Shown here piece after piece: positions 1 to 25,859 of a stretch of 33,490 bases of DNA. The stretch is from a virus (Duplodnaviria > Heunggongvirae > Uroviricota > Caudoviricetes). The position numbers and the translations under genes were made by a program. The notes beneath the pieces were generated by a model. It saw only the letters and a list, made by a program, of their open reading frames with translations. It did not search any database and was not told where the DNA came from. Position 1 is the stretch's first letter; each line of letters opens with the position of its first letter. The stretch lies in the IMG/VR virus record IMGVR_UViG_2667527975_000008; one strand, given 5' to 3'.

Positions 1-1362
1 ATGTTTAAACCGGAACTCCTTTCCCCGGCGGGAACGCTGAAAAATATGCGTTACGCTTTCGCTTATGGCGCAGATGCTGTTTATGCGGGCCAGCCGCGTT
101 ACTCCCTGCGTGTGCGCAACAACGAATTCAACCACGAAAATCTTCAACTCGGCATTAACGAAGCCCACGCGCTGGGGAAAAAGTTTTATGTCGTGGTCAA
201 CATTGCACCGCACAACGCCAAGCTGAAAACCTTTATCCGTGACCTGAAACCGGTGGTGGAAATGGGGCCGGATGCGCTGATTATGTCCGATCCAGGGCTG
301 ATTATGCTGGTGCGTGAGCACTTCCCTGAAATGCCGATCCATCTCTCGGTACAGGCTAACGCCGTGAACTGGGCGACGGTGAAATTCTGGCAGCAAATGG
401 GCCTGACCCGCGTGATCCTCTCTCGCGAACTGTCACTGGAAGAGATTGAAGAGATCCGCAATCAGGTGCCGGATATGGAAATCGAAATCTTCGTTCACGG
501 CGCGCTGTGCATGGCCTACTCCGGTCGCTGCCTGCTCTCTGGCTATATCAACAAGCGCGACCCGAACCAGGGCACCTGCACCAACGCCTGCCGCTGGGAG
601 TACAACGTCCAGGAAGGGAAAGAAGATGACGTTGGCAACATCGTACACAAGTACGAGCCGATTCCGGTGCAAAATGTTGAGCCGACGCTGGGTATCGGCG
701 CGCCAACCGACAAAGTGTTTATGATCGAAGAAGCCCAGCGTCCGGGCGAGTATATGACCGCGTTTGAAGATGAGCACGGCACTTACATCATGAACTCGAA
801 AGATCTGCGCGCCATCGCCCATGTTGAACGCCTGACCAAAATGGGCGTGCATTCGCTGAAAATCGAAGGCCGTACCAAATCTTTCTACTATTGCGCACGC
901 ACCGCGCAGGTTTACCGTAAAGCTATCGATGACGCCGCTGCGGGCAAACCGTTCGATACCAGCCTGCTGGAAACTCTGGAAGGTCTGGCGCATCGTGGCT
1001 ATACCGAAGGTTTCCTGCGTCGTCATACTCACGACGATTATCAGAACTACGAATACGGTTATTCAGTTTCTGACCGCCAGCAGTTTGTTGGTGAGTTTAC
1101 CGGTGAGCGCAAGGGGGACCTCGCGGCGGTAGCGGTGAAAAATAAATTCTCCGTTGGCGACAGCCTTGAGCTAATGACGCCGCAAGGCAACATTAACTTT
1201 ACCCTTGAGCACATGGAAAACGCCAAAGGTGAAGCTATGCCGGTCGCACCAGGCGATGGTTATACTGTGTGGCTCCCGGTGCCGCAGGATCTTGAGCTAA
1301 ATTACGCGCTGCTGATGCGTAATTTCTCCGGGGAAACCACGCGTAACCCCCACGGTAAGTGA
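1..1362 (+). CDS. yegQ: Peptidase U32 family protein YegQ (TrhP, tRNA hydroxylation), host gene
   Basis: 453-aa ORF matching E. coli YegQ in length and sequence character (Cys-rich U32 motifs); it precedes cyaR as in E. coli K-12. Confidence 0.85.
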   Translation: MFKPELLSPAGTLKNMRYAFAYGADAVYAGQPRYSLRVRNNEFNHENLQLGINEAHALGKKFYVVVNIAPHNAKLKTFIRDLKPVVEMGPDALIMSDPGLIMLVREHFPEMPIHLSVQANAVNWATVKFWQQMGLTRVILSRELSLEEIEEIRNQVPDMEIEIFVHGALCMAYSGRCLLSGYINKRDPNQGTCTNACRWEYNVQEGKEDDVGNIVHKYEPIPVQNVEPTLGIGAPTDKVFMIEEAQRPGEYMTAFEDEHGTYIMNSKDLRAIAHVERLTKMGVHSLKIEGRTKSFYYCARTAQVYRKAIDDAAAGKPFDTSLLETLEGLAHRGYTEGFLRRHTHDDYQNYEYGYSVSDRQQFVGEFTGERKGDLAAVAVKNKFSVGDSLELMTPQGNINFTLEHMENAKGEAMPVAPGDGYTVWLPVPQDLELNYALLMRNFSGETTRNPHGK

Positions 1363-1932: not shown

Positions 1933-3096
1933 TCACTCATCATCTTCTGTTTCGTACTCCACATCAGAAAGCCTGACCTCAAGCTCTAAGGACGTCGTGA
2001 AGCCGCTATTATTCAGAAAATGTGTCACCTTAGTGATTGTCCAGTCCTGCTCGTCTATGACGCGCTTAAAGCCAGACACTTTGACCGGTGTTTCCGTGTA
2101 AATATCTGCCCGACCGGTAGCCAGGCTGATGGAGAACTCCGCAACGCCCCGTTGCAGTTTATCCCACTTCGCCTGAGCGGCGCGCATGGCCTGCGCTTTC
2201 GTGGCATATACCGTGGTCAGGGCAAAAACGTTGTCAGCCTCACCGGCCATGTATTCACCTTCACGCGCTTCCGGTACTTTAGGCGCTTTCTTCTGCCTGA
2301 CCGGTTTCGCTTTCGGGTGCTCCAGTGCGCGCAGGTGTTTCTCTTTCTTTTTGCGTTTCAGTTTTACCTTCTGCTTTTGAGGCTTCGGGTCTTTGGTGTG
2401 TAGCCATTTTGCCGTTACACCGGTGTAGGCTCCACGGTCAGCAATCGCAAAATGATGGCGGTCGCCGTCGCTGCGGGTTATGGTGACCTGCGGGATTTTT
2501 TTACCGCTGGCCGTCACTCCCTGCCCCGCTTTGAGAAACAACAGTTTTCCCATTTTTACCGACACCTCACCGCCGTTGCGTTCAGCAAGGCGGGTCAGGA
2601 ATTTTGCATCAGACTCCTGCGACTGGTCGATGTGCGGGATTTTAATTCCGGCCAGTGACGGCGCGACACTGGCTTCCAGCCTGTTACGGGAGGCTATCAC
2701 CTCAACAATCGCACCGAGCGTGGTGTCATGCCAGGAGCCTTCACGGCGGGAATTGAGCGTCCCGCGGAAATCTGCACTCCGGGCGCGGATGGTAACCACA
2801 TCCGGCGCGCCCCGGTGTTCAACCTCATCAACGGTAAATTTCCCTTTGCATACCAGGGCAAAACCTTTCCAGCCGATATACACCGTCAGGACAGCGCCAC
2901 GAATCGGTAGCCCGACCTGCCCGTCGGCGTCGTTCAGTTCAATATCAAGCTGGTCAGCCTCAAAGCCCCGGTTATCCGTCAGGGTCATGCTCATCAGACG
3001 GTCGCTGATATTGCCGGTAATATCCCTGCTGTCGAGCATCAGCATGTAATCCGGCGTCAGCGTACTGCCTGCATCAAATGTCAGCGCATCCAGCAT
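1933..3096 (-). CDS. D: Tail protein D (late control gene D)
   Basis: 387-aa ORF with the lysine-rich central linker typical of P2 gpD; position between ogr and U. Confidence 0.9.
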   Translation of the reverse strand: MLDALTFDAGSTLTPDYMLMLDSRDITGNISDRLMSMTLTDNRGFEADQLDIELNDADGQVGLPIRGAVLTVYIGWKGFALVCKGKFTVDEVEHRGAPDVVTIRARSADFRGTLNSRREGSWHDTTLGAIVEVIASRNRLEASVAPSLAGIKIPHIDQSQESDAKFLTRLAERNGGEVSVKMGKLLFLKAGQGVTASGKKIPQVTITRSDGDRHHFAIADRGAYTGVTAKWLHTKDPKPQKQKVKLKRKKKEKHLRALEHPKAKPVRQKKAPKVPEAREGEYMAGEADNVFALTTVYATKAQAMRAAQAKWDKLQRGVAEFSISLATGRADIYTETPVKVSGFKRVIDEQDWTITKVTHFLNNSGFTTSLELEVRLSDVEYETEDDE

Positions 3097-3575
3097 TATC
3101 CCGCCTCCGTCATACCCGTGAATTTAGTCGCCATACTGCCAGCCTTACCGATGAGCGATTCCGCCTGTTTACCGATATCGCCATAAAGCGCGGCCAGTGA
3201 TTCATCAACGCGGGTGAGCGACAGCGTAAAATCAATTTTTCGGGGTGTGCCGTCTGCAAAGAAAATACTCCCTGTTTCACTCACCTTACTGATGACATAC
3301 ATGCCGTAAATCATGCCGGTGCCATCCAGCAACGGCCACGCCCGACCTTCCTCTGCCATCAGCCTGAGCGTGGTCATCGTCAGCTTGCCGCCGGTCAGTT
3401 CGGGATAAAGCACACCGGCCAGCGTGATGTTTTCCTCACCCACACCGAGAAACTGAAAGGCATCCCGTTTGCCGATACGGGAATTTGACGGCCAGCGATA
3501 ATCTGATTCACGCTGCATGGTCTGGTGTGGCAGCGTCTGGCGCATAAAAACAAACATACCTAACGCGAGCATCAT
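3096..3575 (-). CDS. U: Tail protein U
   Basis: 159-aa ORF in the gpU position; stop overlaps the D start. Confidence 0.85.
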   Translation of the reverse strand: MMLALGMFVFMRQTLPHQTMQRESDYRWPSNSRIGKRDAFQFLGVGEENITLAGVLYPELTGGKLTMTTLRLMAEEGRAWPLLDGTGMIYGMYVISKVSETGSIFFADGTPRKIDFTLSLTRVDESLAALYGDIGKQAESLIGKAGSMATKFTGMTEAG

Positions 3576-3589
3576 TTTTCGTCACCTCC

Positions 3590-6037
3590 TTAACCGTCAT
3601 GCATCATGCTGGCACGGGCGCGCGCACGTTTATCCCGCTCGTATTTTTCGAGCGCATCCTGTAACTGGCGGTCGAGCTGAGTCCCCGGTGCAGTACCGCC
3701 CGTCAGACTGATGTGATATTCGTTTTTACTCTGGTCCACATAAGAGCGGCCAGCCGGTGCCGTGACTGGCTGATAAGCCTGATAGCCTGCATAAGAGCTG
3801 GTCGCCGGAATATAACCACCGGTACCATACGTGGCGGCATGAGTCCTTGCGGCGGTCTGGTCAAGTGTGTCTGACTCTTTGTTGATAACACCGAGTTTTT
3901 CCAGTACCCAGTCAATACCGCTGCGCAGTTTGTTGAACGCATTAAGCGGCAGCATCAACGCGTCAGCCAGCGCCTGCCCGAACATGACGCCCGTGTCACG
4001 GCAACGGTTCAGGGTGTCCTGTGTGGCTTTAACCGGGGCAATCAGGTTTGTAAACCACTGCCACGCGGCCTGTAACTTTTCGCCCAGCCAGTCAAACACC
4101 GGCTTAAGTGGCGTGAAAAGTTCCCCCACCGGCGCAAATGCCGCTTTCAGCCCTTCAACCACACCGCCAAAGAATGCGCTGACAGGCTCCCAGTATTTAC
4201 GGATAAGCAACGCCCCGGCGACAATGGCGGCCACCACGGCCACAACCGGCCAGCTAATAGCCCCGATGGCGGTCATAACAGCACTGCCAACCGTCGTGAA
4301 GACTGCCCCCATTGCGCCTGCTGCCGCGATGATGGCATTGATGCCGGTGATAACCGGCCAGGCTACGAGGCCAATGGCACCGATGATGCCAGTAAGCGCC
4401 AGCGCGCCACCGGCAATGATGCCGATGGTTGACGCCAGTGATTTGTTTTTCTGGATCCAGCCGTCGAGTTTTAACACATACTTTGTGGCCGTCTGCGTGA
4501 GCTTACGCAGCGCGCCTTCCTGCTGGTCAAACAGGTCAGTCCCCACTGCCTCATAAGCGGACTGAAACTCTTTAAAGTCACCGCCTAGGTTGTCCTGCAT
4601 GATATTTACCAGCTCGGCAGTCTTCCCGTCTGAGGCTTTAAACGCAGCGGTCAGTTTGTCCAGCTTTCCGGTTGATGCGGCAGTCATCAGCACGGCGGCG
4701 GCTGAGCTGGCCTCCTCCCCGAAAATAGTTTTCATGTATTCAGCCTGCTGGGCAGTACCGAGCCGGTTTTTCTCAAAACTGGCCTGCATTTCTTTCAGAA
4801 TGGTAAATACTGGTCGGGTGTTTCCCTTGCTGTCTGAGGTTTTCACTCCAAGCTCTTTGAGTGCATCCCATGCTTTTCCCGTCGGTGCCTGCAGGCGGCT
4901 TAACACGGCACGGCTTCCCGTCCCCGCCATTGAGCCTGTGATTTTTGCATCATGCAGCGCCCCGACCATTGCGGCGGTTTCTTCAATGCTGACACCGGCA
5001 TTTTTTGCCACAGGTGCGGCATAGGTCAGCGCATCGCTCATGCCGTCAAAATCGGCGGCGGTTTTGTTCATCGTCATGGAGAGAACATCCCCGATATGAG
5101 CGACCTTATCGTTTGAAAGCTGAAAGGCGGATTTCATCCCCATCAGCAGGGCGGCGTTTTCTTCCATCGTGCGGCGGTTCGCCAGCGCCATATTCAGCGT
5201 GACCGGCGTTGCCGCCTGAATAGCCGCAGCATCTCCACCCGCTTTCGCAATGATAATCTGCGCACCGGCCGCATCATCTGCCGAGGCTGCGGTATTGTCG
5301 CCGAGCTGGCGCGCCTGTTTGCGGAGCGCGGCCATTTCGGCGGAATCTTTTGCCACACCGAGCACGGCCTGCAATTCTGAGTTTTTCTGCGCAAACTCAT
5401 AACCGGGCATCAGCAGCTTAACTCCGGCCATCGTTCCCGCCGCCGCAATCCCCACACCGGCAGCGCCCACCGAGGCCATATTTCCGGCCAGTTCTTTTCC
5501 GGCCTGATAACGCTGTTTTACTGCGTTAAGTTTTGCCTGTTGTGCACTGACACGCGCCAGCGCATCACGCTGCCGGTTAAGCTGTGCGGTGGTTTCACTG
5601 ATACGGTTTTTCAGTCCCTGCTCATCATGTGCAAGATTGCGGGTATTAATTCCCACAGCGGCCAGTTCCCGCTGCTGGCGTTTAACAGAATCCGTCAGGC
5701 GGTTATATTTCGCCTGTAAGTCCTCCGCCGCACGCTTTGCGGATTCCAGCACTTTCGCCTGAGCACGGGTCGGACGTTCGGTATTTTTAAACTGTGTGGC
5801 AAGGGCTTCGGCTTCCTGCCGTGCCTTTTCAAGTGCATGACCAGTCACGGCGAGCTGTGCACTGGTCTTGCGGAATCCCTCAATACGGGATGCGTGACCG
5901 TTCAGCTCGCGCAGTGATTTTTGTGTTTCCCGGATATCCCCCGACAGCGACTTGCTCGCTGTGCGGATGGATTTAAACGGGCGGGATGCCTGGTCAACAG
6001 CCCTGAGCAATACCTGTAATTTTACATTGTTACTCAT
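3590..6037 (-). CDS. T: Tail tape measure protein T
   Basis: 815-aa ORF with coiled-coil N-terminus and Gly/Ala-rich hydrophobic segments typical of tape measure proteins; position between E and U. Confidence 0.9.
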   Translation of the reverse strand: MSNNVKLQVLLRAVDQASRPFKSIRTASKSLSGDIRETQKSLRELNGHASRIEGFRKTSAQLAVTGHALEKARQEAEALATQFKNTERPTRAQAKVLESAKRAAEDLQAKYNRLTDSVKRQQRELAAVGINTRNLAHDEQGLKNRISETTAQLNRQRDALARVSAQQAKLNAVKQRYQAGKELAGNMASVGAAGVGIAAAGTMAGVKLLMPGYEFAQKNSELQAVLGVAKDSAEMAALRKQARQLGDNTAASADDAAGAQIIIAKAGGDAAAIQAATPVTLNMALANRRTMEENAALLMGMKSAFQLSNDKVAHIGDVLSMTMNKTAADFDGMSDALTYAAPVAKNAGVSIEETAAMVGALHDAKITGSMAGTGSRAVLSRLQAPTGKAWDALKELGVKTSDSKGNTRPVFTILKEMQASFEKNRLGTAQQAEYMKTIFGEEASSAAAVLMTAASTGKLDKLTAAFKASDGKTAELVNIMQDNLGGDFKEFQSAYEAVGTDLFDQQEGALRKLTQTATKYVLKLDGWIQKNKSLASTIGIIAGGALALTGIIGAIGLVAWPVITGINAIIAAAGAMGAVFTTVGSAVMTAIGAISWPVVAVVAAIVAGALLIRKYWEPVSAFFGGVVEGLKAAFAPVGELFTPLKPVFDWLGEKLQAAWQWFTNLIAPVKATQDTLNRCRDTGVMFGQALADALMLPLNAFNKLRSGIDWVLEKLGVINKESDTLDQTAARTHAATYGTGGYIPATSSYAGYQAYQPVTAPAGRSYVDQSKNEYHISLTGGTAPGTQLDRQLQDALEKYERDKRARARASMMHDG

Positions 6038-7044: not shown

Positions 7045-8235
7045 TTAATTGCTGTTAACCGAGGTGACCAGATTTGCCAGGTATTTATCGGTAATACGCT
7101 GGCGCAGGGTCAGGTTTTCAAGAGGAGGCACCGGGGTATAGTCGTAGTCGATATACAGTTTTCCGGCCTTGAGGGTTTCCGCATCGTTGGATTCTTCGCT
7201 GAACCAGCAGGTCGCATCCACGATATAGCCGTTTGTTTTCAGCTCACGGAATTTGGCATTGATGCCGTCAACGATGTCGCGAATCAGCGTTGCAGTGATG
7301 GGCTTGTCCACCGCCCACATGTGCGCCTCAGCCATCGTGTCGGCCAGCACCTGCGCGGTGCGGGTGTAGTTTTCAAAGAGGAACAGCGGGTCATCAGAGC
7401 AGGTACGGTTACCCCAGAATCGGAAACCGTCGCGGCGAATCAGCGTAGTGACGCCTGACTCGTTAAGCAGGTCAGCATCGGTGCCGGACTCCTGCAAATC
7501 CCAGAATACAGATGCGCTGATGCCGGTAACACCGTTCACCCCGACGTTGGACAGCGTTTTATGCCAGCCCTGCTCCTGGTCGATTTTAGCGCGCAGCCCC
7601 AGCGCACGAGCGGTGGCATACGCGGTGGCGGTGGTACTGGTGACCGTATCCCATGCGAGGAAATCCGGCCAGATGACCATCAGCTCACGCTGGCTGAAAT
7701 TCTGGCGGTAGGCTTTCACCTCGGAAATGGTCTTACAGCCCCATGCGCTGATATACCCGAAAGCGCGCAGCTTCTGACAGACTGATGCCAGTGCTACAGC
7801 CACCTCTTTGGTATCCAGTCCCGGCACACCAAGAATACGCGGTTTAACACCGGTTACCGACTCCGCCGCCAGCAGGGCTTTCAGTCCGGTGTACTGACCG
7901 TTTTCGTCAGTGGTGCCGATGATATTGGAAACGGTCTGCGCAAGTTTCGTTTCTTCGTCGTCGCCGGTGCCGTCCTCCACGCGCACAACAACGGTGACCG
8001 GTTTTGACTGGTCGGCGATAGCCTGCAACGATGCCGCCAGCGTGCCTTTTTTACCGGCCTTTGCAATTGCGCTCTGCACATTGGTAATCAGCACCGGTTT
8101 ATTGAGGGGGAAGGTTTCCGCATCCGCATCGCTGGCCGTGCAGACCATGCCAACAATGGCAGTGGATACGGTGGAAATGACACGGGTGCCGTCGTTAATC
8201 TCCAGCACCTGCACGCCGTGATGATAGTCACTCAT
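7045..8235 (-). CDS. FI: Contractile tail sheath protein FI
   Basis: 396-aa ORF matching the P2 sheath protein in size and position. Confidence 0.9.
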   Translation of the reverse strand: MSDYHHGVQVLEINDGTRVISTVSTAIVGMVCTASDADAETFPLNKPVLITNVQSAIAKAGKKGTLAASLQAIADQSKPVTVVVRVEDGTGDDEETKLAQTVSNIIGTTDENGQYTGLKALLAAESVTGVKPRILGVPGLDTKEVAVALASVCQKLRAFGYISAWGCKTISEVKAYRQNFSQRELMVIWPDFLAWDTVTSTTATAYATARALGLRAKIDQEQGWHKTLSNVGVNGVTGISASVFWDLQESGTDADLLNESGVTTLIRRDGFRFWGNRTCSDDPLFLFENYTRTAQVLADTMAEAHMWAVDKPITATLIRDIVDGINAKFRELKTNGYIVDATCWFSEESNDAETLKAGKLYIDYDYTPVPPLENLTLRQRITDKYLANLVTSVNSN

Positions 8236-8294
8236 CCGTTTAACTCCGTGGTTAATGGGTGAGTGATATTTTCAGTTGTGCCGGAGATGTCAGG

Positions 8295-8888
8295 CTATTT
8301 GTCCCGGTTGGCTAAGGGATGACACAATTTATTCTTTGTCGCTGATGAGGGGAATTTTTTATAGAGCGTGGACAGGCCAATATCAAAAATCAGCGCCACG
8401 CGTTGACGTGATTCACCCGCAGCCAGCAACCGTCCTGCCTGTTCCCACTCACTCGCGGTGAGCTTCGGACGTCTGCCACCAATACGACCTTTAGCTCTGG
8501 CCGCTTCCAGTCCGGCGCGTGTCCGCTCGACAATGAGTTCTCGTTCCATTTCAGCCAGGGCACCCATCACATGAAAGAAAAAACGCCCCATCGGCGTGCT
8601 GGTATCAATAGCATCCGTCAGGCTGCGAAAATTAACGCCGCGTTCGCGCAGTTCCTCAACCAGAATGACCAGATGCCGCATACTACGCCCCAGCCTGTCC
8701 AGCTTCCAGACCACCAGTGTATCCCCCTCCGATAATGTCCTGAGCAGTTTTTTCAGTCCCGGTCGGTCGGACTTAGTGCCGCTGATTTTATCCTCAAAAA
8801 TCAGCTCACATCCTGCGCACTCCAGCGCGTTACGCTGCAATTCCGTGTTCTGGTCATTTGTTGACACGCGTACATAGCCAATAAGCAT
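8295..8888 (-). CDS. Serine recombinase / DNA invertase (Gin/Cin/Pin/Hin family) for tail-fibre switching
   Basis: Product MLIGYVRVSTNDQNTELQRNAL...VVWKLDRLGRSM...MGRFFFHVMGALAEMERELI...GGRRPKL with C-terminal HTH; the catalytic Ser motif and near-identity to Gin over the N-terminal 140 aa are recognisable by eye. Start taken at the second Met; the track ORF starts 6 nt upstream (8894). Confidence 0.9.
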   Translation of the reverse strand: MLIGYVRVSTNDQNTELQRNALECAGCELIFEDKISGTKSDRPGLKKLLRTLSEGDTLVVWKLDRLGRSMRHLVILVEELRERGVNFRSLTDAIDTSTPMGRFFFHVMGALAEMERELIVERTRAGLEAARAKGRIGGRRPKLTASEWEQAGRLLAAGESRQRVALIFDIGLSTLYKKFPSSATKNKLCHPLANRDK

Positions 8889-8943
8889 GAGCATCCCCCT
8901 GAATAAAAACCGGAGATGATGCCAGTTGCCCGTTATCTCTGCA

Positions 8944-8969
8944 TTTTCATAAACGTTGGTTTGGGAGAA
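8944..8969. repeat. Invertase crossover site, left (gix/cix-like 26 bp)
   Basis: ttttcataaacgttggtttgggagaa; reverse complement TTCTCCCAAACC-AA-CGTTTATGAAAA. The half-site TTCTCCCAAACC is shared, in inverted orientation, with the site at 10830..10855. Confidence 0.75.
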
Positions 8970-9308
8970 GCGGCTAAAAGGAATGTAGGGACAGGGGCGA
9001 ATCAGATACCTGATATGGGTAGCTTCACGCTTTCTGTTTCAGGTACTGGATATCAAAAATTACCATCAGGTTTTATTCTTCAGTGGGGCTCAATCGGCGC
9101 ACCAGGCATTGCACAGGATGTAGTAACCCATTTCCCGATTGCATTTCCAAACAGATGTCTGCGTGTTTTGGTCTCACAAGACTACACACCAGATAGCGGG
9201 GCTGTTGGTTATATTGCCTGTGCAGGTTTTAGTCCCGACCCGGTTAAATTTATATCCAGAGCCAGTACTCCTGGCCTCGGCGCTTCATTTTTAGCGTTAG
9301 GCTGTTAA
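8970..9308 (+). CDS. Alternative tail-fibre C-terminal segment (Hv'), silent in this orientation; no own start codon
   Basis: Open frame runs through the left crossover site (..FINVGLGE|[12 protein letters not shown]...). It would fuse to the constant part of H (..LAYLGLGE) after inversion. The track's N-terminal Met at 8916 is an ORF-caller artefact. Confidence 0.65.
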
Positions 9309-9329
9309 TTTAGCTATATGGAGTGAAAA

Positions 9330-9770
9330 ATGAATTACATATATTCCGCGACTACAAACTCTTTCTATCCGCTGGAGATGAAAGAGGATTACACTCAAGC
9401 TGACTCATGGCCAGATGATGCTGTTGAAGTTGATGAGCAAGTGTATATTGAGTTTTCCGGATTACCGCCGAAAGGAAAAATCCGTATCGCTGGAGAAAAT
9501 GGTTTTCCTGCATGGTCTGAAATTCCACCACCAACACATGAGGAACAAATTGCTGCAGCCGAATTGGAGAAGCAGCAATTGATTAATCAGGCCAACGATT
9601 ATATGAACAGTAAACAATGGCCTGGTAAAGCGGCTATTGGTCGTCTGAAAGGTGACGAACTGGCGCAATATAATTTGTGGCTGGATTACCTGGACGCACT
9701 GGAACTGGTCGATACTTCCGGTGCGCCAGATATTGAATGGCCTACGCCTCCGGCAGTTCAGGCCAGATGA
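9330..9770 (+). CDS. Tail fibre assembly protein, alternative copy (tfa', paired with Hv')
   Basis: 146-aa ORF with the conserved N-terminal Tfa region (YIYSATTNSFYP...); converges on and overlaps the 3' end of the opposing tfa. Confidence 0.8.
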   Translation: MNYIYSATTNSFYPLEMKEDYTQADSWPDDAVEVDEQVYIEFSGLPPKGKIRIAGENGFPAWSEIPPPTHEEQIAAAELEKQQLINQANDYMNSKQWPGKAAIGRLKGDELAQYNLWLDYLDALELVDTSGAPDIEWPTPPAVQAR

Positions 9771-10344
9771 CATCCGGCGCGGTGCTGGTATCTGTTGCCG
9801 TCACCGCGTCAATGTAATCCAGCACAGCGTTAAGCCGGGTTGTTTCTGCCTGCGTCAGTTTACGTCCGGCCTGCAATTTCAGTTGAATCAGACTGATGGA
9901 AGCCATTGCAGTATCAATCAGCGACTGGCGCTGTGCTTCTGCTGCATCTACTGCGGCGCTATGCTGTGCCTCAGTATCGGTCACCCATTTCTCACCATCC
10001 CATTTATCGTATGGCGTTAATGGGGCGATAGTGGTTGTATTTTCAGGGTAATCACCCGGAGCGGTGATTTCTTTTGATTCTCCTGTTTTGGTGCTATAGA
10101 CCGTTTCACCGCGATGGTCTGGCACATATTCCCATGAGTTAAAATCTGCAGAACGGCAGATTGCATAACCAGCCTTATGTGTGCCAGGGGCATCTAAACA
10201 GGAACATGCCGGAATGCCGACACCAACGGCAAGATATTCATTTGAAGTGGAAATATATTCCCGTGTTTCACCATCATAGTTATAAACGGTAATATCCCCT
10301 GCCTTTGTTGCAATGAGCTCACTATTTAATATTGCTTTATGCAT
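9742..10344 (-). CDS. G: Tail fibre assembly protein (G-like), in the expressed orientation
   Basis: 200-aa ORF directly downstream of H with stop/start overlap; the C-terminal region resembles that of tfa' (..TSTAPDVIWPELP vs ..TSGAPDIEWPTPP). Confidence 0.8.
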   Translation of the reverse strand: MHKAILNSELIATKAGDITVYNYDGETREYISTSNEYLAVGVGIPACSCLDAPGTHKAGYAICRSADFNSWEYVPDHRGETVYSTKTGESKEITAPGDYPENTTTIAPLTPYDKWDGEKWVTDTEAQHSAAVDAAEAQRQSLIDTAMASISLIQLKLQAGRKLTQAETTRLNAVLDYIDAVTATDTSTAPDVIWPELPEA

Positions 10345-11669
10345 CAGGCTGCCCTCACGATATAGTTAAATGCAATATTACGCGGACGCGTTTCTGAGGC
10401 TGCGGCACCTAAACCAGCCACTGATTGTTTATATGTTTTAAAGGTTCCATAATCCGGTGCTGGTAATCCGGCATCGTTTGTGTTTCCTCTTTTGATAATG
10501 TCAGTGCCACTATTTACCCAGCTTTCATCAAAATAGAAATTAATCGTTGCATCAGTCACAATCGTGGATCTTGACGGTAATCCATGAGCATGATCCTCCG
10601 TTGCATACCCCTGAATACTTAAAATAGAGCGACCTGTATCAATCCCCCGCCCGTCATCCCAGCCACGAATAAACTCACCACGTAAATCAGGCAATTTATT
10701 TGTCGGGTAAACTTTTGCCAGTTCCGGGTATTCTTCAGCAGAAAAAGCTGCACCATTGCATTTCAGCCAGCCTGTTGGCGGAGTGGCTGAAGGCCACGGA
10801 ACAGGGACACCAACAGGTAATGCAGAGCCTTCTCCCAAACCAAGGTATGCGAGAAGACCGGCAACATCCTTTCCACTCAAATGAGTCAGCGTCTCATCCA
10901 GTGGCTGCTTACCTGACAGCGCATTGTTAATGGTGGTACTGAATTTCGGGTCATTGTTAATGGCTGCGGCAATTTCTTTCAGTGTGTCCAGCGTGGCTGG
11001 CGCACCGTTAATCAGAGCGGTAATAGCGGCCTGAACAAACTCAGTGGTCGCAATCCGCGTGGTGTTATTTCCTGCGGCAGGCGTCGGCGCTTTTGGTTCT
11101 CCGGTAAATGTCGGATTATGTTTCTGTGCATACTGGGTATGAGGATCCTGTGCGGCAATGTGGTTTCTCATCTGGTCATCCACATACAGCCTTAATTCCA
11201 GGACTTCATCATCCACGTATTTACGGGTCGCCAGTACCACCGACGGGTCGATTTTCAGCGTAATAGCTTCGGTATTCGTGACAACCAGAATCATGCGGAT
11301 AGTCTGGGTACGACCACTGCCTTCCTGCAACTGCGGTTTGTACGTTTCCGGGCAGTTCGCCACCGCAATGAGTACGCCTTCATCATCATAAAGCCCAATC
11401 TCACGGATCCAGAATCCGCCCTCGTTCTCAGGGATGATTTGCTCCGCAATAATCTGGCTCTGGTTGTTCGGGTCAACACTCAGAAGATTCAGCGGCGCGA
11501 TGCGTTTCTGGTTAATCAGTTTTGTCTGTGCCGGGTCTGGTGTCGGCAAGACACCATTCGCATCACCAACGGCCATTTGCGTCAGATTCAGCTTACTGCC
11601 GAGCATCGTCGCGTTAGCCAGCCGTGCTGCGCCCTGATTAGTCAGAATGGCGTAGTATTTCACTGTCAT
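10344..11669 (-). CDS. H: Tail fibre protein H (constant N-terminus plus invertible C-terminus)
   Basis: 441-aa ORF with the P2 gpH-like N-terminus (MTVKYYAILTNQGAARLANA...); the crossover site lies inside it at about codon 271. Confidence 0.9.
   Translation of the reverse strand: MTVKYYAILTNQGAARLANATMLGSKLNLTQMAVGDANGVLPTPDPAQTKLINQKRIAPLNLLSVDPNNQSQIIAEQIIPENEGGFWIREIGLYDDEGVLIAVANCPETYKPQLQEGSGRTQTIRMILVVTNTEAITLKIDPSVVLATRKYVDDEVLELRLYVDDQMRNHIAAQDPHTQYAQKHNPTFTGEPKAPTPAAGNNTTRIATTEFVQAAITALINGAPATLDTLKEIAAAINNDPKFSTTINNALSGKQPLDETLTHLSGKDVAGLLAYLGLGEGSALPVGVPVPWPSATPPTGWLKCNGAAFSAEEYPELAKVYPTNKLPDLRGEFIRGWDDGRGIDTGRSILSIQGYATEDHAHGLPSRSTIVTDATINFYFDESWVNSGTDIIKRGNTNDAGLPAPDYGTFKTYKQSVAGLGAAASETRPRNIAFNYIVRAA
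10830..10855. repeat. Invertase crossover site, right (inside gene H)
   Basis: ttctcccaaaccaaggtatgcgagaa, inverted relative to the left site; encodes LAYLGLGE in H. Confidence 0.75.
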
Positions 11670-12277
11670 GCGTTTACTCTCAGGTTATCAATTAAATGAA
11701 TGGCCGAGGCCGGGAAATAATCCCCTCCGACAATAATGGCCTCCGGGGTGTAGGGATAAACCGTCAGGGCGTCACCGTGATAGCATCCCGCACCGGCAAA
11801 AATGTTGCCGGTTGTACTTAAACTGATAGCCAGTCCCGTCAGATGGCGGCTTGCCGGTTTTGCATCAGCAACGAGGCGCTCCAGCTCCTGATACATTTCC
11901 TCGGTAATACCCTGCTCAAGCACGCCAACAACGATGCGGAACGTCCCCGGCTCCTCGTTGAGCTGCCACCACTCCCTCACCTCAATCAGATAGCCGAGCG
12001 GCTCCACCACACGGCGGATTGCGCCTATAGTGCCCTTATGGCAGTGAATGAAATACGCATCGCGGATAACAGCGCGTTTTGTCGCTTCCGGCCACTTATC
12101 ATCCCAGCGGTCAACCGAAAATGACCACGCCAGCCACGGCAGCAGATTTGCCGGGCAGGTGTCCGGGTTCCACAGCTCACGAATACTGACCGGTGTTTTT
12201 TCAATTTCCGCACAGGCTTTTGCGGCGGCAACTTCAAGCGGTGATGAGCCGGTCGGCAGCAGTCGCGAATCACTCAT
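11666..12277 (-). CDS. I: Baseplate assembly protein I
   Basis: 203-aa ORF in the gpI position, overlapping the H start. Confidence 0.85.
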   Translation of the reverse strand: MSDSRLLPTGSSPLEVAAAKACAEIEKTPVSIRELWNPDTCPANLLPWLAWSFSVDRWDDKWPEATKRAVIRDAYFIHCHKGTIGAIRRVVEPLGYLIEVREWWQLNEEPGTFRIVVGVLEQGITEEMYQELERLVADAKPASRHLTGLAISLSTTGNIFAGAGCYHGDALTVYPYTPEAIIVGGDYFPASAIHLIDNLRVNA

Positions 12278-14239: not shown

Positions 14240-14995
14240 TTAGTTGTAGCACTTCTCTATAATCTTCATACACTCCTCATGAGCTAAATCATGGCTGTCA
14301 AATTCTTTATTAAAAAAGAAGAAAAACGCCTTCTTAACCTGAGGAATTTCAATAAAAACAAATTCATCAACCTTATGAAAGAAATGAAAACTCTTGTTTG
14401 ATGTTTCAAAAACCATCAAAGAATTATGTTTTTTATCCTTCCATTTCGACATCAGATTGCGTCGCGATTTTCGTATAATCCTGAAGACATCCCCCGGCGT
14501 CGTATCGACATTCCCCCAAAACATTGCAACCGGGAAGTTTGCAAGAAACGGGATATAATCACCACCTTTATACCTGAGAAAGCGGTTCCGCAAATCCATT
14601 AATTGCAACTTAAAACCCATGTATTGCAACCACCATATGATGCAATCATACTCATAATCTGTTAACTCCTCCCCTCTCTTTTCCGTAAGAAATTTCTTCA
14701 GGTTATACTCAAACACTCCCAGCAAATCAGAATTGCACACTCTGCATGCTGGTACAGTGGCTTTAATGTAATGAGTTGACTGATTATTCTTTTTATTAAT
14801 TAAAGATTTTTCAGCATTTGACTCAAAGGCCCACTGAGGAATAATGTGCTCACGAGTAATATCGTCAGAACTCCCGCATAACACACATATATCAGCATTA
14901 TGGTCAGCAATAATACAATCCATAACTTTCTTTTGAGAATGCTTTACTCTTTTTCTCAAAATGGAAAACTTTTTATCCACAAACACCCGTCTCAT
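14240..14995 (-). CDS. HNH-motif nuclease-like cargo protein inserted between S and V (homing endonuclease or defence nuclease)
   Basis: 251-aa ORF, visibly AT-rich (about one-third GC in hand-counted 60-mers). Contains C-x2-C ... E-H-I-I-P ... N ... C-x2-C-N (CVLCGSSDDITREHIIPQW...CRVCNSD), the beta-beta-alpha-Me/HNH signature. Start overlaps the S stop by 4 nt (ATGA). Confidence 0.6.
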   Translation of the reverse strand: MRRVFVDKKFSILRKRVKHSQKKVMDCIIADHNADICVLCGSSDDITREHIIPQWAFESNAEKSLINKKNNQSTHYIKATVPACRVCNSDLLGVFEYNLKKFLTEKRGEELTDYEYDCIIWWLQYMGFKLQLMDLRNRFLRYKGGDYIPFLANFPVAMFWGNVDTTPGDVFRIIRKSRRNLMSKWKDKKHNSLMVFETSNKSFHFFHKVDEFVFIEIPQVKKAFFFFFNKEFDSHDLAHEECMKIIEKCYN

Positions 14996-17368: not shown

Positions 17369-17649
17369 TACTGTTTCCCCCTGCCCTTAAAGCGGCGCTG
17401 AATGGCAATCTCAATCACCTGATAACCGGCGATACCCAGCATGGAGCCGATGCCGCACACCGCAGGCAGTGACAGGTCAGGAAACTGCACCAGAACAACA
17501 CCGGCAACCATCGAGACAAAACCACCGAGCAACATGCGCCCGATAAACAGACGCGGGGTGATGGGTTCACCACCGGCAAGCACCTTGCCGACAACAATCA
17601 GCACCCCAATCATGAAAAGCGACAGGACGCTTTTTTCTTCTGCTGTCAT
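17368..17649 (-). CDS. Y: Holin Y
   Basis: 93-aa ORF with transmembrane segments and a charged C-terminus; position between X and K. Confidence 0.85.
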   Translation of the reverse strand: MTAEEKSVLSLFMIGVLIVVGKVLAGGEPITPRLFIGRMLLGGFVSMVAGVVLVQFPDLSLPAVCGIGSMLGIAGYQVIEIAIQRRFKGRGKQ

Positions 17650-21365: not shown

Positions 21366-23138
21366 ATGACCATCACCACAGACACCACTCTTTTACACGA
21401 CCCGCGTCGTCAGGCGGCGCTGCTGTACTGGCAGGGATTTTCCGTGCCGCAGATTGCCGCCATGTTGCAGATGAAACGCCCGACGGTGCAGAGCTGGAAA
21501 CAGCGCGACGGCTGGGACAGCGTTGCCCCCATCAGCCGTGTCGAAATGAGTCTGGAAGCGCGACTGACCCAGCTCATCATCAAACCGCAGAAAACCGGCG
21601 GTGACTTCAAGGAAATTGACCTGCTCGGACGCCAGATTGAACGACTGGCACGGGTCAACCGTTACAGTCAGACCGGCAACGAGGCAGACCTTAATCCGAA
21701 CGTTGCTAACCGCAACAAAGGCGGGCGGCGCAAACCGAAAAAGAATTTTTTCAGTGACGAGGCCATCGAAAAGCTGGAGCAGATTTTCTTTGAGCAGTCT
21801 TTCGACTACCAGTTGCACTGGTATCGCGCCGGGCTTGAGCACCGCATCCGCGATATCCTGAAATCCCGCCAGATTGGCGCAACGTTTTATTTTTCCCGCG
21901 AGGCGCTGCTGCGCGCCCTGAAAACCGGTCATAACCAGATTTTTCTGTCAGCCAGTAAAACGCAGGCGTATGTGTTCCGCGAATACATCATCGCCTTTGC
22001 CCGTCTGGTTGACGTTGACCTGACCGGTGACCCGATTGTCCTGGGCAATAACGGCGCAAAACTGATTTTTCTCGGCACCAACTCCAACACCGCGCAGAGC
22101 CATAACGGCGACCTGTACGTCGACGAGATTTTCTGGATCCCGAATTTTCAGGTACTGCGTAAGGTGGCATCAGGTATGGCCTCACAGAGTCACCTGCGCT
22201 CGACCTATTTCTCCACCCCGTCCACGCTGGCGCACGACGCCTATCCGTTCTGGTCCGGTGAACTGTTCAACCGGGGACGCGCCAGCGCCGCTGAACGCGT
22301 GGAAATCGACGTCAGTCATAACGCACTTGCCGGTGGGCTTCTCTGTGCGGACGGCCAGTGGCGGCAGATTGTCACCATTGAGGACGCCCTGAAAGGTGGC
22401 TGCACGCTGTTCGACATTGAGCAGCTTAAACGCGAAAACAGCGCCGACGATTTTAAAAACCTGTTCATGTGTGAATTTGTTGACGACAAGGCGTCGGTAT
22501 TCCCGTTCGAGGAGCTGCAACGCTGCATGGTCGACACGCTGGAAGAATGGGAAGACTATGCGCCGTTTGCCGCCAATCCGTTCGGCTCCCGCCCGGTATG
22601 GATTGGTTACGACCCGTCACACCGTGGCGACAGTGCCGGATGCGTGGTGCTGGCACCGCCGGTGGTGGCCGGTGGCAAATTCAGAATACTTGAGCGTCAC
22701 CAGTGGAAAGGCATGGACTTTGCCACCCAGGCTGAATCCATCCGCAAACTCACCGAAAAATATAACGTTGAATACATCGGTATTGATGCCACCGGCCTCG
22801 GTGTCGGCGTGTTCCAGCTCGTGCGCTCGTTCTATCCCGCCGCGCGCGATATCCGCTACACGCCGGAAATGAAAACCGCAATGGTGCTCAAGGCAAAAGA
22901 CGTTATCCGCCGAGGCTGTCTGGAGTATGACGTCAGCGCCACCGACATCACCAGCTCGTTTATGGCTATCCGCAAGACCATGACCAGCAGCGGACGCAGC
23001 GCCACCTATGAGGCCAGCCGCAGCGAGGAAGCCAGCCACGCCGACCTCGCCTGGGCGACCATGCACGCCCTGTTAAATGAGCCACTCACCGCCGGTATCA
23101 GCACTCCGCTGACATCCACCATTCTGGAGTTTTACTGA
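21366..23138 (+). CDS. P: Terminase ATPase (large) subunit P
   Basis: 590-aa product from MTITTDTTLLHDPRRQAALLYWQG...; divergent from O as in P2. Confidence 0.9.
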   Translation: MTITTDTTLLHDPRRQAALLYWQGFSVPQIAAMLQMKRPTVQSWKQRDGWDSVAPISRVEMSLEARLTQLIIKPQKTGGDFKEIDLLGRQIERLARVNRYSQTGNEADLNPNVANRNKGGRRKPKKNFFSDEAIEKLEQIFFEQSFDYQLHWYRAGLEHRIRDILKSRQIGATFYFSREALLRALKTGHNQIFLSASKTQAYVFREYIIAFARLVDVDLTGDPIVLGNNGAKLIFLGTNSNTAQSHNGDLYVDEIFWIPNFQVLRKVASGMASQSHLRSTYFSTPSTLAHDAYPFWSGELFNRGRASAAERVEIDVSHNALAGGLLCADGQWRQIVTIEDALKGGCTLFDIEQLKRENSADDFKNLFMCEFVDDKASVFPFEELQRCMVDTLEEWEDYAPFAANPFGSRPVWIGYDPSHRGDSAGCVVLAPPVVAGGKFRILERHQWKGMDFATQAESIRKLTEKYNVEYIGIDATGLGVGVFQLVRSFYPAARDIRYTPEMKTAMVLKAKDVIRRGCLEYDVSATDITSSFMAIRKTMTSSGRSATYEASRSEEASHADLAWATMHALLNEPLTAGISTPLTSTILEFY

Positions 23139-24172
23139 TGAGCAAGAAAAAAGGGAAAACACCGCAACCTGCGGCAAAAACAATGACCGCCAGCGCCCCG
23201 AAAATGGAGGCATTCACCTTTGGTGAGCCGGTGCCGGTACTCGACCGCCGTGACATTCTGGATTACGTCGAGTGCATCAGTAACGGCAGATGGTATGAGC
23301 CGCCGGTCAGCTTTACCGGTCTGGCAAAAAGCCTGCGTGCTGCCGTGCATCACAGCTCGCCGATTTACGTTAAACGCAATATTCTGGCTTCAACGTTTAT
23401 TCCGCATCCGTGGCTTTCTCAGCAGGATTTCAGCCGCTTTGTGCTGGATTTTCTGGTGTTCGGTAATGCGTTTCTGGAAAAGCGTTACAGCACCACCGGT
23501 AAGGTCATCAGACTGGAAACCTCACCGGCAAAATATACCCGCCGTGGGGTGGAGGAGGATGTTTACTGGTGGGTGCCGTCCTTCAACGAGCCGACAGCCT
23601 TCACGCCCGGCTCCGTGTTTCACCTGCTGGAGCCGGATATCAATCAGGAGCTGTACGGCCTGCCGGAATATCTCAGCGCCCTTAATTCTGCCTGGCTGAA
23701 TGAATCAGCCACACTGTTCCGCCGCAAGTATTACGAAAACGGCGCTCATGCCGGATACATCATGTACGTCACTGATGCCGTGCAGGATCGCAACGATATC
23801 GAAATGCTCCGCGAAAACATGGTGAAGTCGAAAGGCCGCAACAACTTTAAAAATCTGTTTCTCTATGCCCCACAGGGGAAAGCCGACGGCATTAAAATTA
23901 TCCCCCTCAGTGAAGTGGCAACGAAAGACGATTTTTTTAATATCAAAAAAGCCAGCGCCGCTGACCTGCTGGACGCGCACCGCATTCCCTTTCAGTTGAT
24001 GGGCGGCAAGCCGGAGAACGTCGGGTCACTGGGTGATATTGAGAAAGTGGCAAAGGTCTTTGTCCGCAATGAGCTTATCCCGCTACAGGACAGGATCCGC
24101 GAGATAAACGGCTGGCTCGGTCAGGAGGTCATCCGATTTAAAAACTACTCACTGGACACTGACAACGACTGA
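23138..24172 (+). CDS. Q: Portal protein Q
   Basis: 344-aa ORF whose start overlaps the P stop. Confidence 0.9.
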   Translation: MSKKKGKTPQPAAKTMTASAPKMEAFTFGEPVPVLDRRDILDYVECISNGRWYEPPVSFTGLAKSLRAAVHHSSPIYVKRNILASTFIPHPWLSQQDFSRFVLDFLVFGNAFLEKRYSTTGKVIRLETSPAKYTRRGVEEDVYWWVPSFNEPTAFTPGSVFHLLEPDINQELYGLPEYLSALNSAWLNESATLFRRKYYENGAHAGYIMYVTDAVQDRNDIEMLRENMVKSKGRNNFKNLFLYAPQGKADGIKIIPLSEVATKDDFFNIKKASAADLLDAHRIPFQLMGGKPENVGSLGDIEKVAKVFVRNELIPLQDRIREINGWLGQEVIRFKNYSLDTDND

Positions 24173-24360: not shown

Positions 24361-24597
24361 CGCCCGCTTCATGGGGCGGTTTTAATGCAGTTGCATAGAT
24401 ACTATGGATGCGCACCAGCTCTGACCGCAAGCAACCGAAACTGGCATCCCCGACGCATGCAAAAACATTCACTTGTTGCATGCACGGCTTATTTAATGAC
24501 AAATCAACTTAAATTTACGAAGTCTACAGGCATGGATTCTTTGCTAACATGATAGGCTTACGAGAATTATCGAGCCTATTTTTCACCGGAGCAATGT

Positions 24598-25539
24598 ATG
24601 CAAGGTAAAGTTGACGAACCGCAACCAAATGAGATTATTTCGGAGTTTGGATACTATCCAGTAGAAGTTAACATTGAGACTGAACAATTTTCTTTGCGTA
24701 CTTTACCCAATCTCATTGAGAAAGTGGAACATGTTAACAATGATAAAAACGTTGTTAATGGTTGGATATACCCTGGAAATAAAAAGGTATATAATCTCAA
24801 TGGTGGTATATCCACAATGCCTTATAGTCACCGAGTATTCGGCATGCCCAAAACACACACACTAAAATTAAAAAATACATCCTCGTTAGAAACTCTCAAC
24901 TTTGTTGTGTGGTGTCTATCTTTTTTCAAGGGTATAAGATTGACAACCACTGACGCTGGTTTTCTTGATGCAACCACTATCAAGCCCACTAAGTTAACCG
25001 ACTTTATTCTCGTTGGATGCTCTGAAAAAGAAGTAATAGAGCTCGCACTTAACTATATAAAAGAAAAACAAAAAGATGAACGTTCCATTAAAAGAATAGC
25101 TGCGGTGATACATTCCCTATTCCTGTCACATAACCCACTATACCTTTCCTTTGAGAAATTCCAGTATCTTTATATGGCTCTTGATTGCTGTTTTGCTATA
25201 GCATGGGACGAAAGGGATAAAGTCATTAAAAAGAAAAAACCATCTCATCAAAATAGAGTATATTGGATGTGCGAAAATTACGGTATAAAAATCCCGTCAT
25301 GGGCAACAGATGAATGTAATGTTTCAGTTATACGCAATGATAATTTTCATGAAGCCATTTTTAATGGGCAACCGCTTGGTTTTTCTAGTATCAACGATTG
25401 TCAACATGGTAGCGATATATTGCTACAAATGCAGGCTCTGGTGTGTCGTTTACTAGCGGCAATACTCTCTGTAAATGATCGTAAATATATCGCATCTACA
25501 ATCAACTCGATAGAGTACCGTTCATTAAAATTAACTTAA
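24598..25539 (+). CDS. Hypothetical cargo protein in the tin/old-position hotspot; possible HEPN-like RNase motif
   Basis: 313-aa AT-rich ORF with an SD (ggag) upstream; no family recognised. Contains R-N-D-N-F-H (residues about 246-251; nt 25333..25350), which fits the R-[N]-x3-H pattern of HEPN domains. Confidence 0.5.
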   Translation: MQGKVDEPQPNEIISEFGYYPVEVNIETEQFSLRTLPNLIEKVEHVNNDKNVVNGWIYPGNKKVYNLNGGISTMPYSHRVFGMPKTHTLKLKNTSSLETLNFVVWCLSFFKGIRLTTTDAGFLDATTIKPTKLTDFILVGCSEKEVIELALNYIKEKQKDERSIKRIAAVIHSLFLSHNPLYLSFEKFQYLYMALDCCFAIAWDERDKVIKKKKPSHQNRVYWMCENYGIKIPSWATDECNVSVIRNDNFHEAIFNGQPLGFSSINDCQHGSDILLQMQALVCRLLAAILSVNDRKYIASTINSIEYRSLKLT

Positions 25540-25569
25540 TGCTAACGCCTCACTTCGTTCGTTGTTCAA

Positions 25570-25608
25570 CCCCGCCAGCACTGAAAACATGTTTCATTGC
25601 TGGCGGGG
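25570..25608. terminator. 39-bp imperfect palindrome; probable bidirectional terminator between convergent cargo transcription units
   Basis: ccccgccagca...tgctggcgggg arms (11 bp) around an internally palindromic loop (aacatgtt). Confidence 0.45.
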
Positions 25609-25612
25609 TTCT

Positions 25613-25765
25613 CTATCGTCTGCGTGGTGGCGGCGCAAGGCTGGACTGACCGATATAGTTAAGCTGTTCGTAATTATCCCTGACTATTTCGGCACACCCG
25701 ACTAGCTCATCGGGCGTCAGATTTTCGTTGACCATAATCTGCTGTAAACGGTGAACAATGGCCAT
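25613..25765 (-). CDS. Possible small ORF (50 aa) in a GC-normal stretch inside the hotspot
   Basis: ATG..TAG frame MAIVHRLQQIMVNENLTPDELVGCAEIVRDNYEQLNYIGQSSLAPPPRRR, below the 60-aa track cutoff; weak SD; its composition differs from the flanking AT-rich genes. Confidence 0.25.
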   Translation of the reverse strand: MAIVHRLQQIMVNENLTPDELVGCAEIVRDNYEQLNYIGQSSLAPPPRRR

Positions 25766-25859
25766 CAACCTGACACTTTTGGTGTTATATGTGGTATCTC
25801 ACATGAGATTACTGACCAAGGTGCATCTTGGTTGACTCATTTCATATCCATCCACACCA

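Follow-up and report, generated by a model that had tools for sequence, protein, structure and literature searches.

It is very probable (about 90%) that a site-specific inversion switch of the Pin/Gin type controls the receptor-binding end of the tail fibre in the complete P2-like (Peduovirus) prophage found in the 33,490-nucleotide stretch of viral DNA analysed here, referred to as the window. The anatomy of such a switch is present, the catalytic residues of its invertase are intact, the alternative fusion of the fibre gene H is in frame, and both orientations occur in nature with their breakpoints at the crossover sites; together these argue strongly that the switch is real and functional. 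The phenomenon itself is already known, with published accounts of inversion within P2-like prophages as well as of invertases sited at Z/fun. The features of the locus are collected in Table 1.

Table 1. Features of the invertible tail-fibre locus and the adjoining pF promoter, in window coordinates.
Feature	Position	Strand	Basis
59-bp gap from invertase stop to FI start: pF core promoter, transcription start and 5' UTR of the F operon	8236-8294	-	P2 alignment
Serine DNA invertase, Pin/Gin/Cin type, 197 aa	8295-8888	-	Pfam, Gin structure match, identities
Homologue of the P2 pF activator (Ogr) binding site, within the 3' end of the invertase ORF	8304-8332	-	P2 annotation 17555-17583, alignable
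Putative recombinational enhancer (Fis-binding 'sis' element), nt 19-90 of the invertase gene	8799-8870	-	alignment to cin
Invertase-proximal 26-bp crossover site, core TT 8956-8957	8944-8969	.	inverted repeat; gix/cix/e14 alignment
Silent alternative H C-terminus (Hv'), gp53-like C-terminal domain	8958-9308	+	Pfam Gp53-like_C 4.5e-15
Tail-fibre assembly protein, 146 aa, partner of Hv'	9330-9770	+	Pfam Caudo_TAP 1.5e-37
Tail-fibre assembly protein, 200 aa, partner of the currently expressed tip	9742-10344	-	Pfam Caudo_TAP 5.7e-33
Currently expressed variable H C-terminus (Hv), Collar domain	10344-10842	-	Pfam Collar 1.6e-14
H-proximal 26-bp crossover site, core AA 10842-10843	10830-10855	.	inverted repeat; gix/cix alignment
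Constant N-terminal part of H, residues 1-276, P2 type	10843-11669	-	Pfam Phage_tail_fib 1.5e-62

The longest inverted repeat of the region, with 27-nt arms at 8944-8970 and 10829-10855 that are 81% complementary, contains the two 26-bp crossover sites. The site next to the invertase reads TTTTCATAAACG-TT-GGTTTGGGAGAA, and the other, which lies within H at codons ...LLAYL|GLGE, reads TTCTCCCAAACC-AA-GGTATGCGAGAA; common to both are the inner half-site TTCTCCCAAACC and the core, in inverted orientation with a matching AA/TT dinucleotide. Both align to gix and cix, and the proximal site agrees at all 26 bases with the e14 site next to pinE. An earlier note, made from the letters of this DNA, had proposed a segment 8944..10855 flanked by inverted 26-bp sites with a common half-site, and both sites were found there. 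When the 33.5-kb window was scanned with the crossover consensus, only these two sites reached at least 13 of the 18 positions, each of them scoring 17, and no third crossover site, which would make the system a shufflon as in one EPEC prophage, was found across the window. The arrangement is far beyond chance, and the breakpoints of naturally inverted variants fall exactly inside both sites.

Between the sites, open reading frames and Pfam matches recover the two convergent assembly genes and the two alternative H C-termini that had been described from the sequence. Each tip is followed on its own strand by a Caudo_TAP gene, with a stop-start overlap between the Collar tip and the 200-aa gene and a 21-bp spacer between the gp53-like tip and the 146-aa gene, and the convergent assembly genes overlap at their 3' ends by 29 bp. 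That only one C-terminus is joined to constant H at LAYLGLGE also proved right: the Collar tip is fused at ...LAYL|GLGE. The present H has 441 aa, and flipping the segment in silico gives an in-frame H' of 392 aa, the form with Hv' being the one expressed in GPEC1210 and pro483. The active Collar tip is 98% identical to the variable part of e14 StfE and its 200-aa assembly protein 98% identical to e14 TfaE; the 146-aa assembly protein shares 61% identity with e14 TfaP over the aligned part.

The invertase ORF spans 8295-8894 on the minus strand when counted from the upstream ATG at 8894. The second ATG, at 8888, is probably the better start; it is well spaced from a GGGGGA Shine-Dalgarno sequence, is the RefSeq-annotated start in identical DNA and agrees with the start of Gin. 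A terminator-like hairpin just upstream of the gene (8908-8927) was considered and rejected, as it folds no better than shuffled sequence (z = -0.21). The protein has the layout of an N-terminal catalytic and a C-terminal DNA-binding domain (Resolvase PF00239, 2e-52; HTH_7 PF02796, 1e-12), and the Gin structures 3uj3 (E = 2e-94) and 4m6f match it over its full length. The earlier description of a Gin/Cin-type enzyme stands in so far as this is an intact serine DNA invertase, but the nearest characterised relative is Pin of e14 (PinE, about 85-87% identity) and not Gin (78%) or Cin (78.5%). Ser9, examined for an inactivating change, is intact within MLIGYVRVS9, and the conserved arginines R7, R65 and R68 (Gin numbering) are kept, with the LDRLGRS motif. 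Judged by the known variants Gin M114V and Hin H107Y, residues H106 and M114 are those of a wild-type, Fis-dependent enzyme.

Intact parts could nevertheless belong to a frozen relic, in which the invertase is silent or inactive, the segment is fixed and only the Collar-type fibre is made. A simple scan found no sigma-70-like promoter-like site upstream of the invertase, and in PCP06173 a near-identical prophage shows decay, its active tip carrying IS903B and its sheath gene a frameshift. This outcome is still very improbable for the present locus, where every catalytic residue is intact, the sites are identical to those of GPEC1209 and GPEC1210, which differ by a clean inversion, the orientations of relatives are near 50:50, and the stretch that separates the crossover site from the invertase start is also conserved in e14 and Mu. 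Moreover, because the proximal site equals the e14 site, Pin-type invertases of the host could act in trans.

That the segment inverts in nature is seen from its relatives. Among complete E. coli genomes with at least 80% coverage, 107 carry the segment as it stands in the window and 94 carry it flipped, and pro483 too has the flipped form. GPEC1209 and GPEC1210, chicken isolates with adjacent strain numbers, are identical over 15.7 kb of prophage save for one inversion, a 1,840-bp span that is the exact reverse complement with zero mismatches and is flanked by 6,971 and 6,872 bp of identical sequence (13.8 kb together). A 15-bp perfect repeat, CTTCTCCCAAACCAA, which fits the invertase crossover consensus, bounds the inverted span, and the invertase of the pair differs from that of the window at 3 of 197 residues.

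It could be argued that the orientations in the databases reflect homologous recombination, exchange of cassettes between different phages or faulty assembly, and relatives do show clear mosaicism in their tail-fibre cassettes: the tips differ among the window, the GPEC pair and pro483, and the central assembly-gene region is conserved. Such an origin is barely credible, however, given an inverted span without mismatches between identical flanks in the GPEC pair and breakpoints inside a repeat that fits the crossover consensus, and a repeat of 15-27 bp is too short for efficient RecA recombination or for misleading long-read assemblies. Inversion in P2-like prophages of EPEC has been shown by sequencing and PCR, with both orientations present side by side (PMC4272514). 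From its near-identical relatives, we infer that the segment switches by site-specific inversion in this prophage too.

By analogy with Gin, Hin and Cin, the two 26-bp sites would be bound by invertase dimers, with Fis on an enhancer in the 5' end of the gene. The putative enhancer in the window aligns ungapped to the annotated enhancer of P1 cin (record 31678-31749), and nucleotide identity to cin is 81% within it as against 67% over the remaining gene; a synonymous-codon test gave mixed values, 52% versus 36% against cin and 43% versus 47% against gin. As in other invertases of this subfamily, inversion may depend on Fis, on the enhancer and on negative supercoiling. Ser9 would cleave both sites at the central AA/TT dinucleotide, one subunit pair would turn through 180 degrees, and the DNA would be rejoined with about 1,886 bp inverted. 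Since the crossover falls within the Leu276 codon of H, one or other of the two tips would be joined to the constant part, whose transcription starts at the late V-operon promoter: in the present state the Collar-type tip, with the 200-aa assembly protein and an H of 441 aa, and in the flipped state the gp53-like tip, with the 146-aa assembly protein and an H' of 392 aa. A population of lysogens would thereby give rise to two kinds of virion differing in receptor specificity, and we infer host-range switching between the fibre forms and, likewise, a rate at which it would proceed.

Judged by its sequence, the system is closely homologous to the Pin/P segment of e14 in E. coli K-12 (stfP-tfaP / tfaE-stfE / pinE). 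From the constant part of the fibre to the invertase, the layout is the same in both, namely constant part, tip and assembly gene, convergent assembly gene and tip, and invertase; the e14 assembly genes also overlap by 29 bp, the GLGE junction motif is common to both, and e14 StfE/TfaE and the active cassette share 95% DNA identity over 1.25 kb. On the other hand, e14 is defective, whereas here a full P2-type H with its Phage_tail_fib domain stands in an apparently complete prophage. The second cassette of e14 is only distantly related to that of the window (tip 27%, TfaP 61%), the H-side site differs from that of e14 in its outer half, and the invertase has a tail 13 residues longer, which overlaps the pF promoter.

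The Gin/G segment of Mu and the Cin/C segment of P1 employ the same enzyme family (78%) and the same 26-bp site consensus. In both, the invertase adjoins one site, as here, the position of the enhancer in the 5' coding region aligns with that of the putative one in the window, and the fibre C-terminus is swapped together with its chaperone by the same logic. The segment is shorter here (1.9 kb, against 3 kb in Mu and 4.2 kb in P1), the core dinucleotide is AA where gix has TC and cix TT, and the P2-like backbone is unlike that of Mu and P1; no sequence likeness of the fibre cassettes to Mu S and U was found. Closer in backbone are pro483, the P2-like prophages of EPEC E2348/69 and Salmonella phage MET_P1_103_31, in which an invertase likewise sits at Z/fun, again between the fibre genes and FI; DNA identity is 95-97%. 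The segment of pro483 is the same in opposite orientation, and only the particular tips differ within this group, the window having a Collar tip that resembles e14 StfE and, as its alternative, a gp53-like one. Where the window has only two sites, one of the EPEC prophages has three, along with four variants.

In P2 itself the genes run in the same order (V W J I H ... FI FII E T U D) and pF is almost the same, but P2 has a fixed H-G pair, a V-operon terminator and a 1.6-kb fun(Z) on the opposite strand; the interval of fun(Z) is here filled by the spare cassette and the invertase, the latter on the strand of H and FI. FI starts at 8235 and the invertase stop codon lies at 8295-8297, in agreement with the 59 bp between the two genes that had been counted before. 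This gap is nearly identical to the P2 sequence upstream of FI, and the annotated transcription start of P2 (record 17626-17628) maps to about 8259-8261 of the window. The alignment of the window with P2 picks up again precisely at the activator-binding site of pF, which falls within the final codons of the invertase. We took TGT-N12-ACA as the late-promoter motif, and the whole window contains no exact copy of it; the pF site is TGT-N12-CCA in both P2 and the window, and as the site of P2 itself has this form, the query was too strict.

Because P2 homology resumes inside the invertase ORF, fun(Z) is replaced by the invertase and the silent cassette, with no room left for further cargo; since the ORF traverses the activator-binding site, there is no spare DNA where P2 has fun(Z). 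The earlier note had regarded the Z/fun position as carrying no cargo, which is right in that no other cargo is present, but the invertase and spare cassette are themselves the variable 'cargo' of the locus. This has already been noted for the Z/fun hotspot, where invertases are frequent and occur with inverted neighbouring genes (bioRxiv 10.1101/2024.10.15.618418).

A further question is whether the segment benefits the lysogen besides, or instead of, altering host range, one orientation yielding a fibre-derived protein that blocks adsorption of other phages. A StfE2 chimera produced by PinQ-driven inversion of the e14 P segment has been reported to block adsorption of T2 (PMC12529663). In favour of such a role are the 98% identity of the active tip and its assembly protein to StfE and TfaE of e14, a proximal site identical to that of e14, and the location at what is known to be a defence hotspot in P2-like phages. 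Such a benefit is nonetheless highly doubtful, as the tip is fused to a full P2-type H, a gene of the late V operon, from which no expression is expected in a lysogen, and no sequence feature pointing to lysogenic expression was found; moreover, since the prophage looks complete, ordinary virion function suffices as an explanation. The 98% identity of the StfE-like tip to that of e14, together with the identical proximal site, makes it conceivable, as a long shot, that one orientation could yield a receptor-masking fibre product and that prophage and host Pin invertases could flip each other's segments. If true, the 'empty' Z/fun defence hotspot would be a phase-variable defence locus.

Taken as an inversion switch of the virion fibre, the locus explains why near-identical P2-like prophages differ in tail-gene annotation, some showing a 'gp53-like domain protein' and a long 'phage tail protein' and others two 'phage tail protein' genes. 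Two types of virion are predicted in lysates of this lysogen, and the locus could be of use in host-range prediction, in prophage typing and in avoiding false structural-variant calls. Its import beyond annotation is small, and it raises no new biological question.

The backbone of the prophage follows the P2 gene order V W J I H ... FI FII E T U D ogr, as read from ORFs, from Pfam matches including Tail_P2_I, Phage_tail_fib and the sheath, and from the annotation of a 98.6%-identical prophage. Homologues of P2 I, J, W and V come after H, and int, C, cox, A and Q are present. A prophage of ABWA45 matches the window at 100% over 8000-11700 and at 98.6% elsewhere, and differs in its insertion site (next to a yegQ-like U32 peptidase gene) and in its old/tin cargo. 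An IetAS system detected by PADLOC belongs to ABWA45 and not to the window, and the tail gene marked by RefSeq as frameshifted in ABWA45 is intact in the window.

Inversion of the tail-fibre segment by site-specific recombination at the crossover sites 8944-8969 and 10830-10855 is strongly supported by natural evidence from relatives of the prophage. When 8956-10843 is flipped in silico, the tail fibre gene H stays in frame and encodes 392 aa ending in the gp53-like tip. Both versions of 8000-11700 were searched against 5,426 complete E. coli genomes with a cut-off of at least 80% coverage; since the segment makes up half of the query, such coverage on one strand needs a matching orientation. 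Nearly identical DNA was found in about 200 genomes, 107 with the present orientation and 94 with the flipped one. The chicken isolates GPEC1209 and GPEC1210, which have adjacent strain numbers, carry the prophage at the same place with all flanking protein accessions the same. Of 15,683 bp compared, the two share 6,971 bp on the left and 6,872 bp on the right without any difference, and the remaining 1,840 bp are an exact reverse complement with zero mismatches, bounded on both sides by the 15-bp perfect repeat CTTCTCCCAAACCAA. The 26-bp sites of the pair are those of the window; in the pair's invertase, 3 of 197 residues differ. Homologous exchange or an assembly error as the origin of the two orientations is excluded for this pair, given an inversion free of mismatches between identical flanks. 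Phage pro483, with flanks 97% identical, has the flipped form too. The in-frame flip, the two orientations among genomes and the exact inversion in these relatives together uphold the invertible segment proposed in the earlier note.

Within 7500-12000, no inverted repeat is longer than 8944-8970/10829-10855, where inverted 26-bp sites with a common half-site had been expected. The left site reads, as its reverse complement, TTCTCCCAAACC-AA-CGTTTATGAAAA and the right one TTCTCCCAAACC-AA-GGTATGCGAGAA; the two are correctly oriented and share the inner half-site and the asymmetric core, with differing outer halves. Both can be aligned to Mu gixL/R and P1 cixL/R, and the whole window holds no third crossover site. 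Between them lie, as the earlier note described, two convergent assembly genes and two alternative H C-termini, each in-frame fusion having its own chaperone gene behind it. The predicted junction of the fused tip is found at ...LLAYL276/GLGE..., the core TT forming positions 2-3 of the Leu276 codon. Across the window, the GPEC pair, pro483 and e14, a defective prophage of E. coli K-12, conservation is highest at the segment centre, with varying tips; the centre resembles a recombination joint at which cassettes are exchanged. On identical DNA, RefSeq annotates the silent tip (window 8916-9308, plus strand) as a separate 130-aa protein, 'gp53-like domain-containing protein', whose start ATG lies outside the invertible segment; this call is most likely an artefact that arises when the switch is annotated in a single orientation.

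Coordinates of the switch, its surroundings and the prophage genes in the window
Feature	Position	Strand	Remark
yegQ-like U32 peptidase gene	1-1362		one flank of the prophage; the other flank is another host gene
ogr, D, U, T, E, FII, FI	7045-8235 (FI)	-	one flank of the switch
Invertase ORF	8295-8894	-	Pfam Resolvase and HTH_7
pF activator-binding site homologue	8304-8332		inside the last invertase codons (...KLCHPLANRDK-stop)
gp53-like_C tip	8958-9308	+	Pfam; silent tip
Caudo_TAP gene, first	9330-9770	+	Pfam
Caudo_TAP gene, second	9742-10344	-	Pfam; 29-bp overlap with the first
Collar-domain tip	10344-10842	-	Pfam; continuous with P2-type H N-terminus
H	10344-11669		then I, J, W, V, then lysis and head genes
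Q	23138-24172		then low-GC cargo block
Block ORF	24598-25539	+	313 aa
Block ORF	25860-26540	-	226 aa
Block ORF	26568-26843	-	91 aa; Pfam DUF2158, sole Pfam match among the three
A, cox, C, int	31725-32738 (int)		beyond the cargo block

The gene proposed as a Gin/Cin-type invertase indeed encodes an intact Pin-type serine invertase, with which the crystallised Gin aligns over the full length (E = 2e-94). Translation likely starts at the second ATG, 8888, which has a GGGGGA Shine-Dalgarno sequence 5 nt ahead, is the RefSeq start on identical DNA and matches the start position of Gin. The resulting 197 residues include R7, S9, L63-DRLGRS, H106 and M114, and the catalytic serine is therefore without the inactivating change that was looked for. 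Identity is 85% by global alignment and 87% by BLASTP to PinE, the e14 invertase, 78% to Gin and 78.5% to Cin. H106 and M114 stand at the positions of Fis-independent mutants in Hin and Gin; their wild-type state fits normal Fis dependence, and the Gin crystal chains have V114. A putative enhancer is suggested at 8799-8870, to which the annotated cin enhancer of P1 (72 nt, cin nt 19-90) aligns gap-free, with 81% identity to cin as against 67% across the remaining gene. As this stretch also codes for the conserved catalytic N-terminus, synonymous codons were compared, with a mixed outcome.

The P segment of e14 has the same layout, down to a 29-bp overlap at the 3' ends of the convergent assembly genes (9742-9770 in the window, 4518-4546 in the e14 stretch of E. 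coli K-12). Its pinE-proximal site equals the proximal, invertase-side site of the window at 26 of 26 bases. The 50-bp stretch between crossover site and invertase start shows conservation with e14 and, in part, with Mu. The variable part of StfE together with TfaE is 98% identical to the active tip and the 200-aa assembly protein, and the DNA 95% identical over 1,255 bp. The second cassette is more distant: TfaP is 61% identical to the other assembly protein over the aligned part, with a nearly identical C-terminus, and StfP only 27% identical to the other tip. No similarity to Mu S and U was detectable in the cassettes. The identity of this proximal site to its e14 counterpart makes cross-reaction with host Pin invertases plausible, with precedents in PinQ acting on e14 (PMC12529663) and in Fin/Hin of Salmonella (cited in PMC4272514).

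In P2, the space between the V-operon terminator and the F-operon promoter pF is taken by fun(Z), a gene of 1,587 nt encoded on the opposite strand. Alignment with P2 shows near identity that reaches from the FI start as far as the annotated pF activator-binding site; no similarity is seen upstream of it. The site, which reads TGT-N12-CCA in P2 and in the window (there at 8309-8326), lies within the invertase gene, whose stop codon (8295-8297) is 6 nt downstream of it; therefore, the 59-bp gap between FI and the invertase (8236-8294), of the length given in the earlier note, is pF core promoter and leader. The exact TGT-N12-ACA dyad occurs 0 times in the whole 33.5-kb window, with about 9 expected by chance. 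There is no room for other cargo at Z/fun, as had been claimed, with the caveat that invertase and spare cassette themselves make up the variable content of the locus.

By analogy with Gin, Hin and Cin, an invertasome would assemble with Fis on the enhancer, Ser9 would cut at the central dinucleotide, and the DNA would be religated after subunit rotation. Lysogens may switch slowly, which would yield mixed induced lysates, and the two fibres may differ in receptor specificity. A frozen relic is unlikely, as the parts are intact and near-identical copies are active. That the switch serves the lysogen by masking receptors, like StfE2, the chimera from PinQ-driven P-segment inversion, is improbable; nothing in the analysis speaks for expression beyond the late operon. 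Published work already covers this kind of system, where it sits in P2-like phages and the fact that it is active in P2-like prophages (PMC4272514; bioRxiv 10.1101/2024.10.15.618418), and deposited phages also carry nearly identical DNA with the gene labelled 'DNA invertase'. The finding is real and correctly interpreted, but ordinary; the only additions are the precise kinship with e14 Pin and its P segment, the observation that the 3' end of the invertase gene overlaps the pF activator site, and the natural evidence for inversion from the matched pair of isolates.

The window is a complete P2-like prophage. The E. coli ABWA45 prophage is 98.6% identical to positions 1546-24389, sharing backbone and tail-fibre switch; it is a distinct prophage, since its insertion site (beside pflB, not yegQ) and old/tin cargo differ. 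At that hotspot ABWA45 carries an IetA/IetS defence pair (36628-40034 of its stretch; PADLOC E = 9e-132 and 5e-273). In the window the classical old/tin hotspot, between portal gene Q and replication gene A, is a low-GC block (24390-26905; 36% against 52% for the prophage) found in 27 complete E. coli genomes; none of its three ORFs has a PADLOC match, and it may be uncharacterised cargo or else a defence system. A 251-aa ORF at the P2 orf30 position between V and S (14240-14995, minus strand; GC 36%) has no PADLOC match and a faint, below-threshold HNH_5 match. MS 198-1 and TUM11352 each have two oppositely oriented copies of the tail-fibre region, on the chromosome and on a plasmid-labelled record (67 kb and 88 kb). 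The nearest relative among complete genomes, strain PCP06173, has a prophage 99.9-100% identical to this one with a frameshifted sheath gene, and IS903B lies in the active Collar-type tip inside its invertible segment (2758-3807 of the PCP06173 stretch; window ~10460-10540), a disruption that flipping would bypass.
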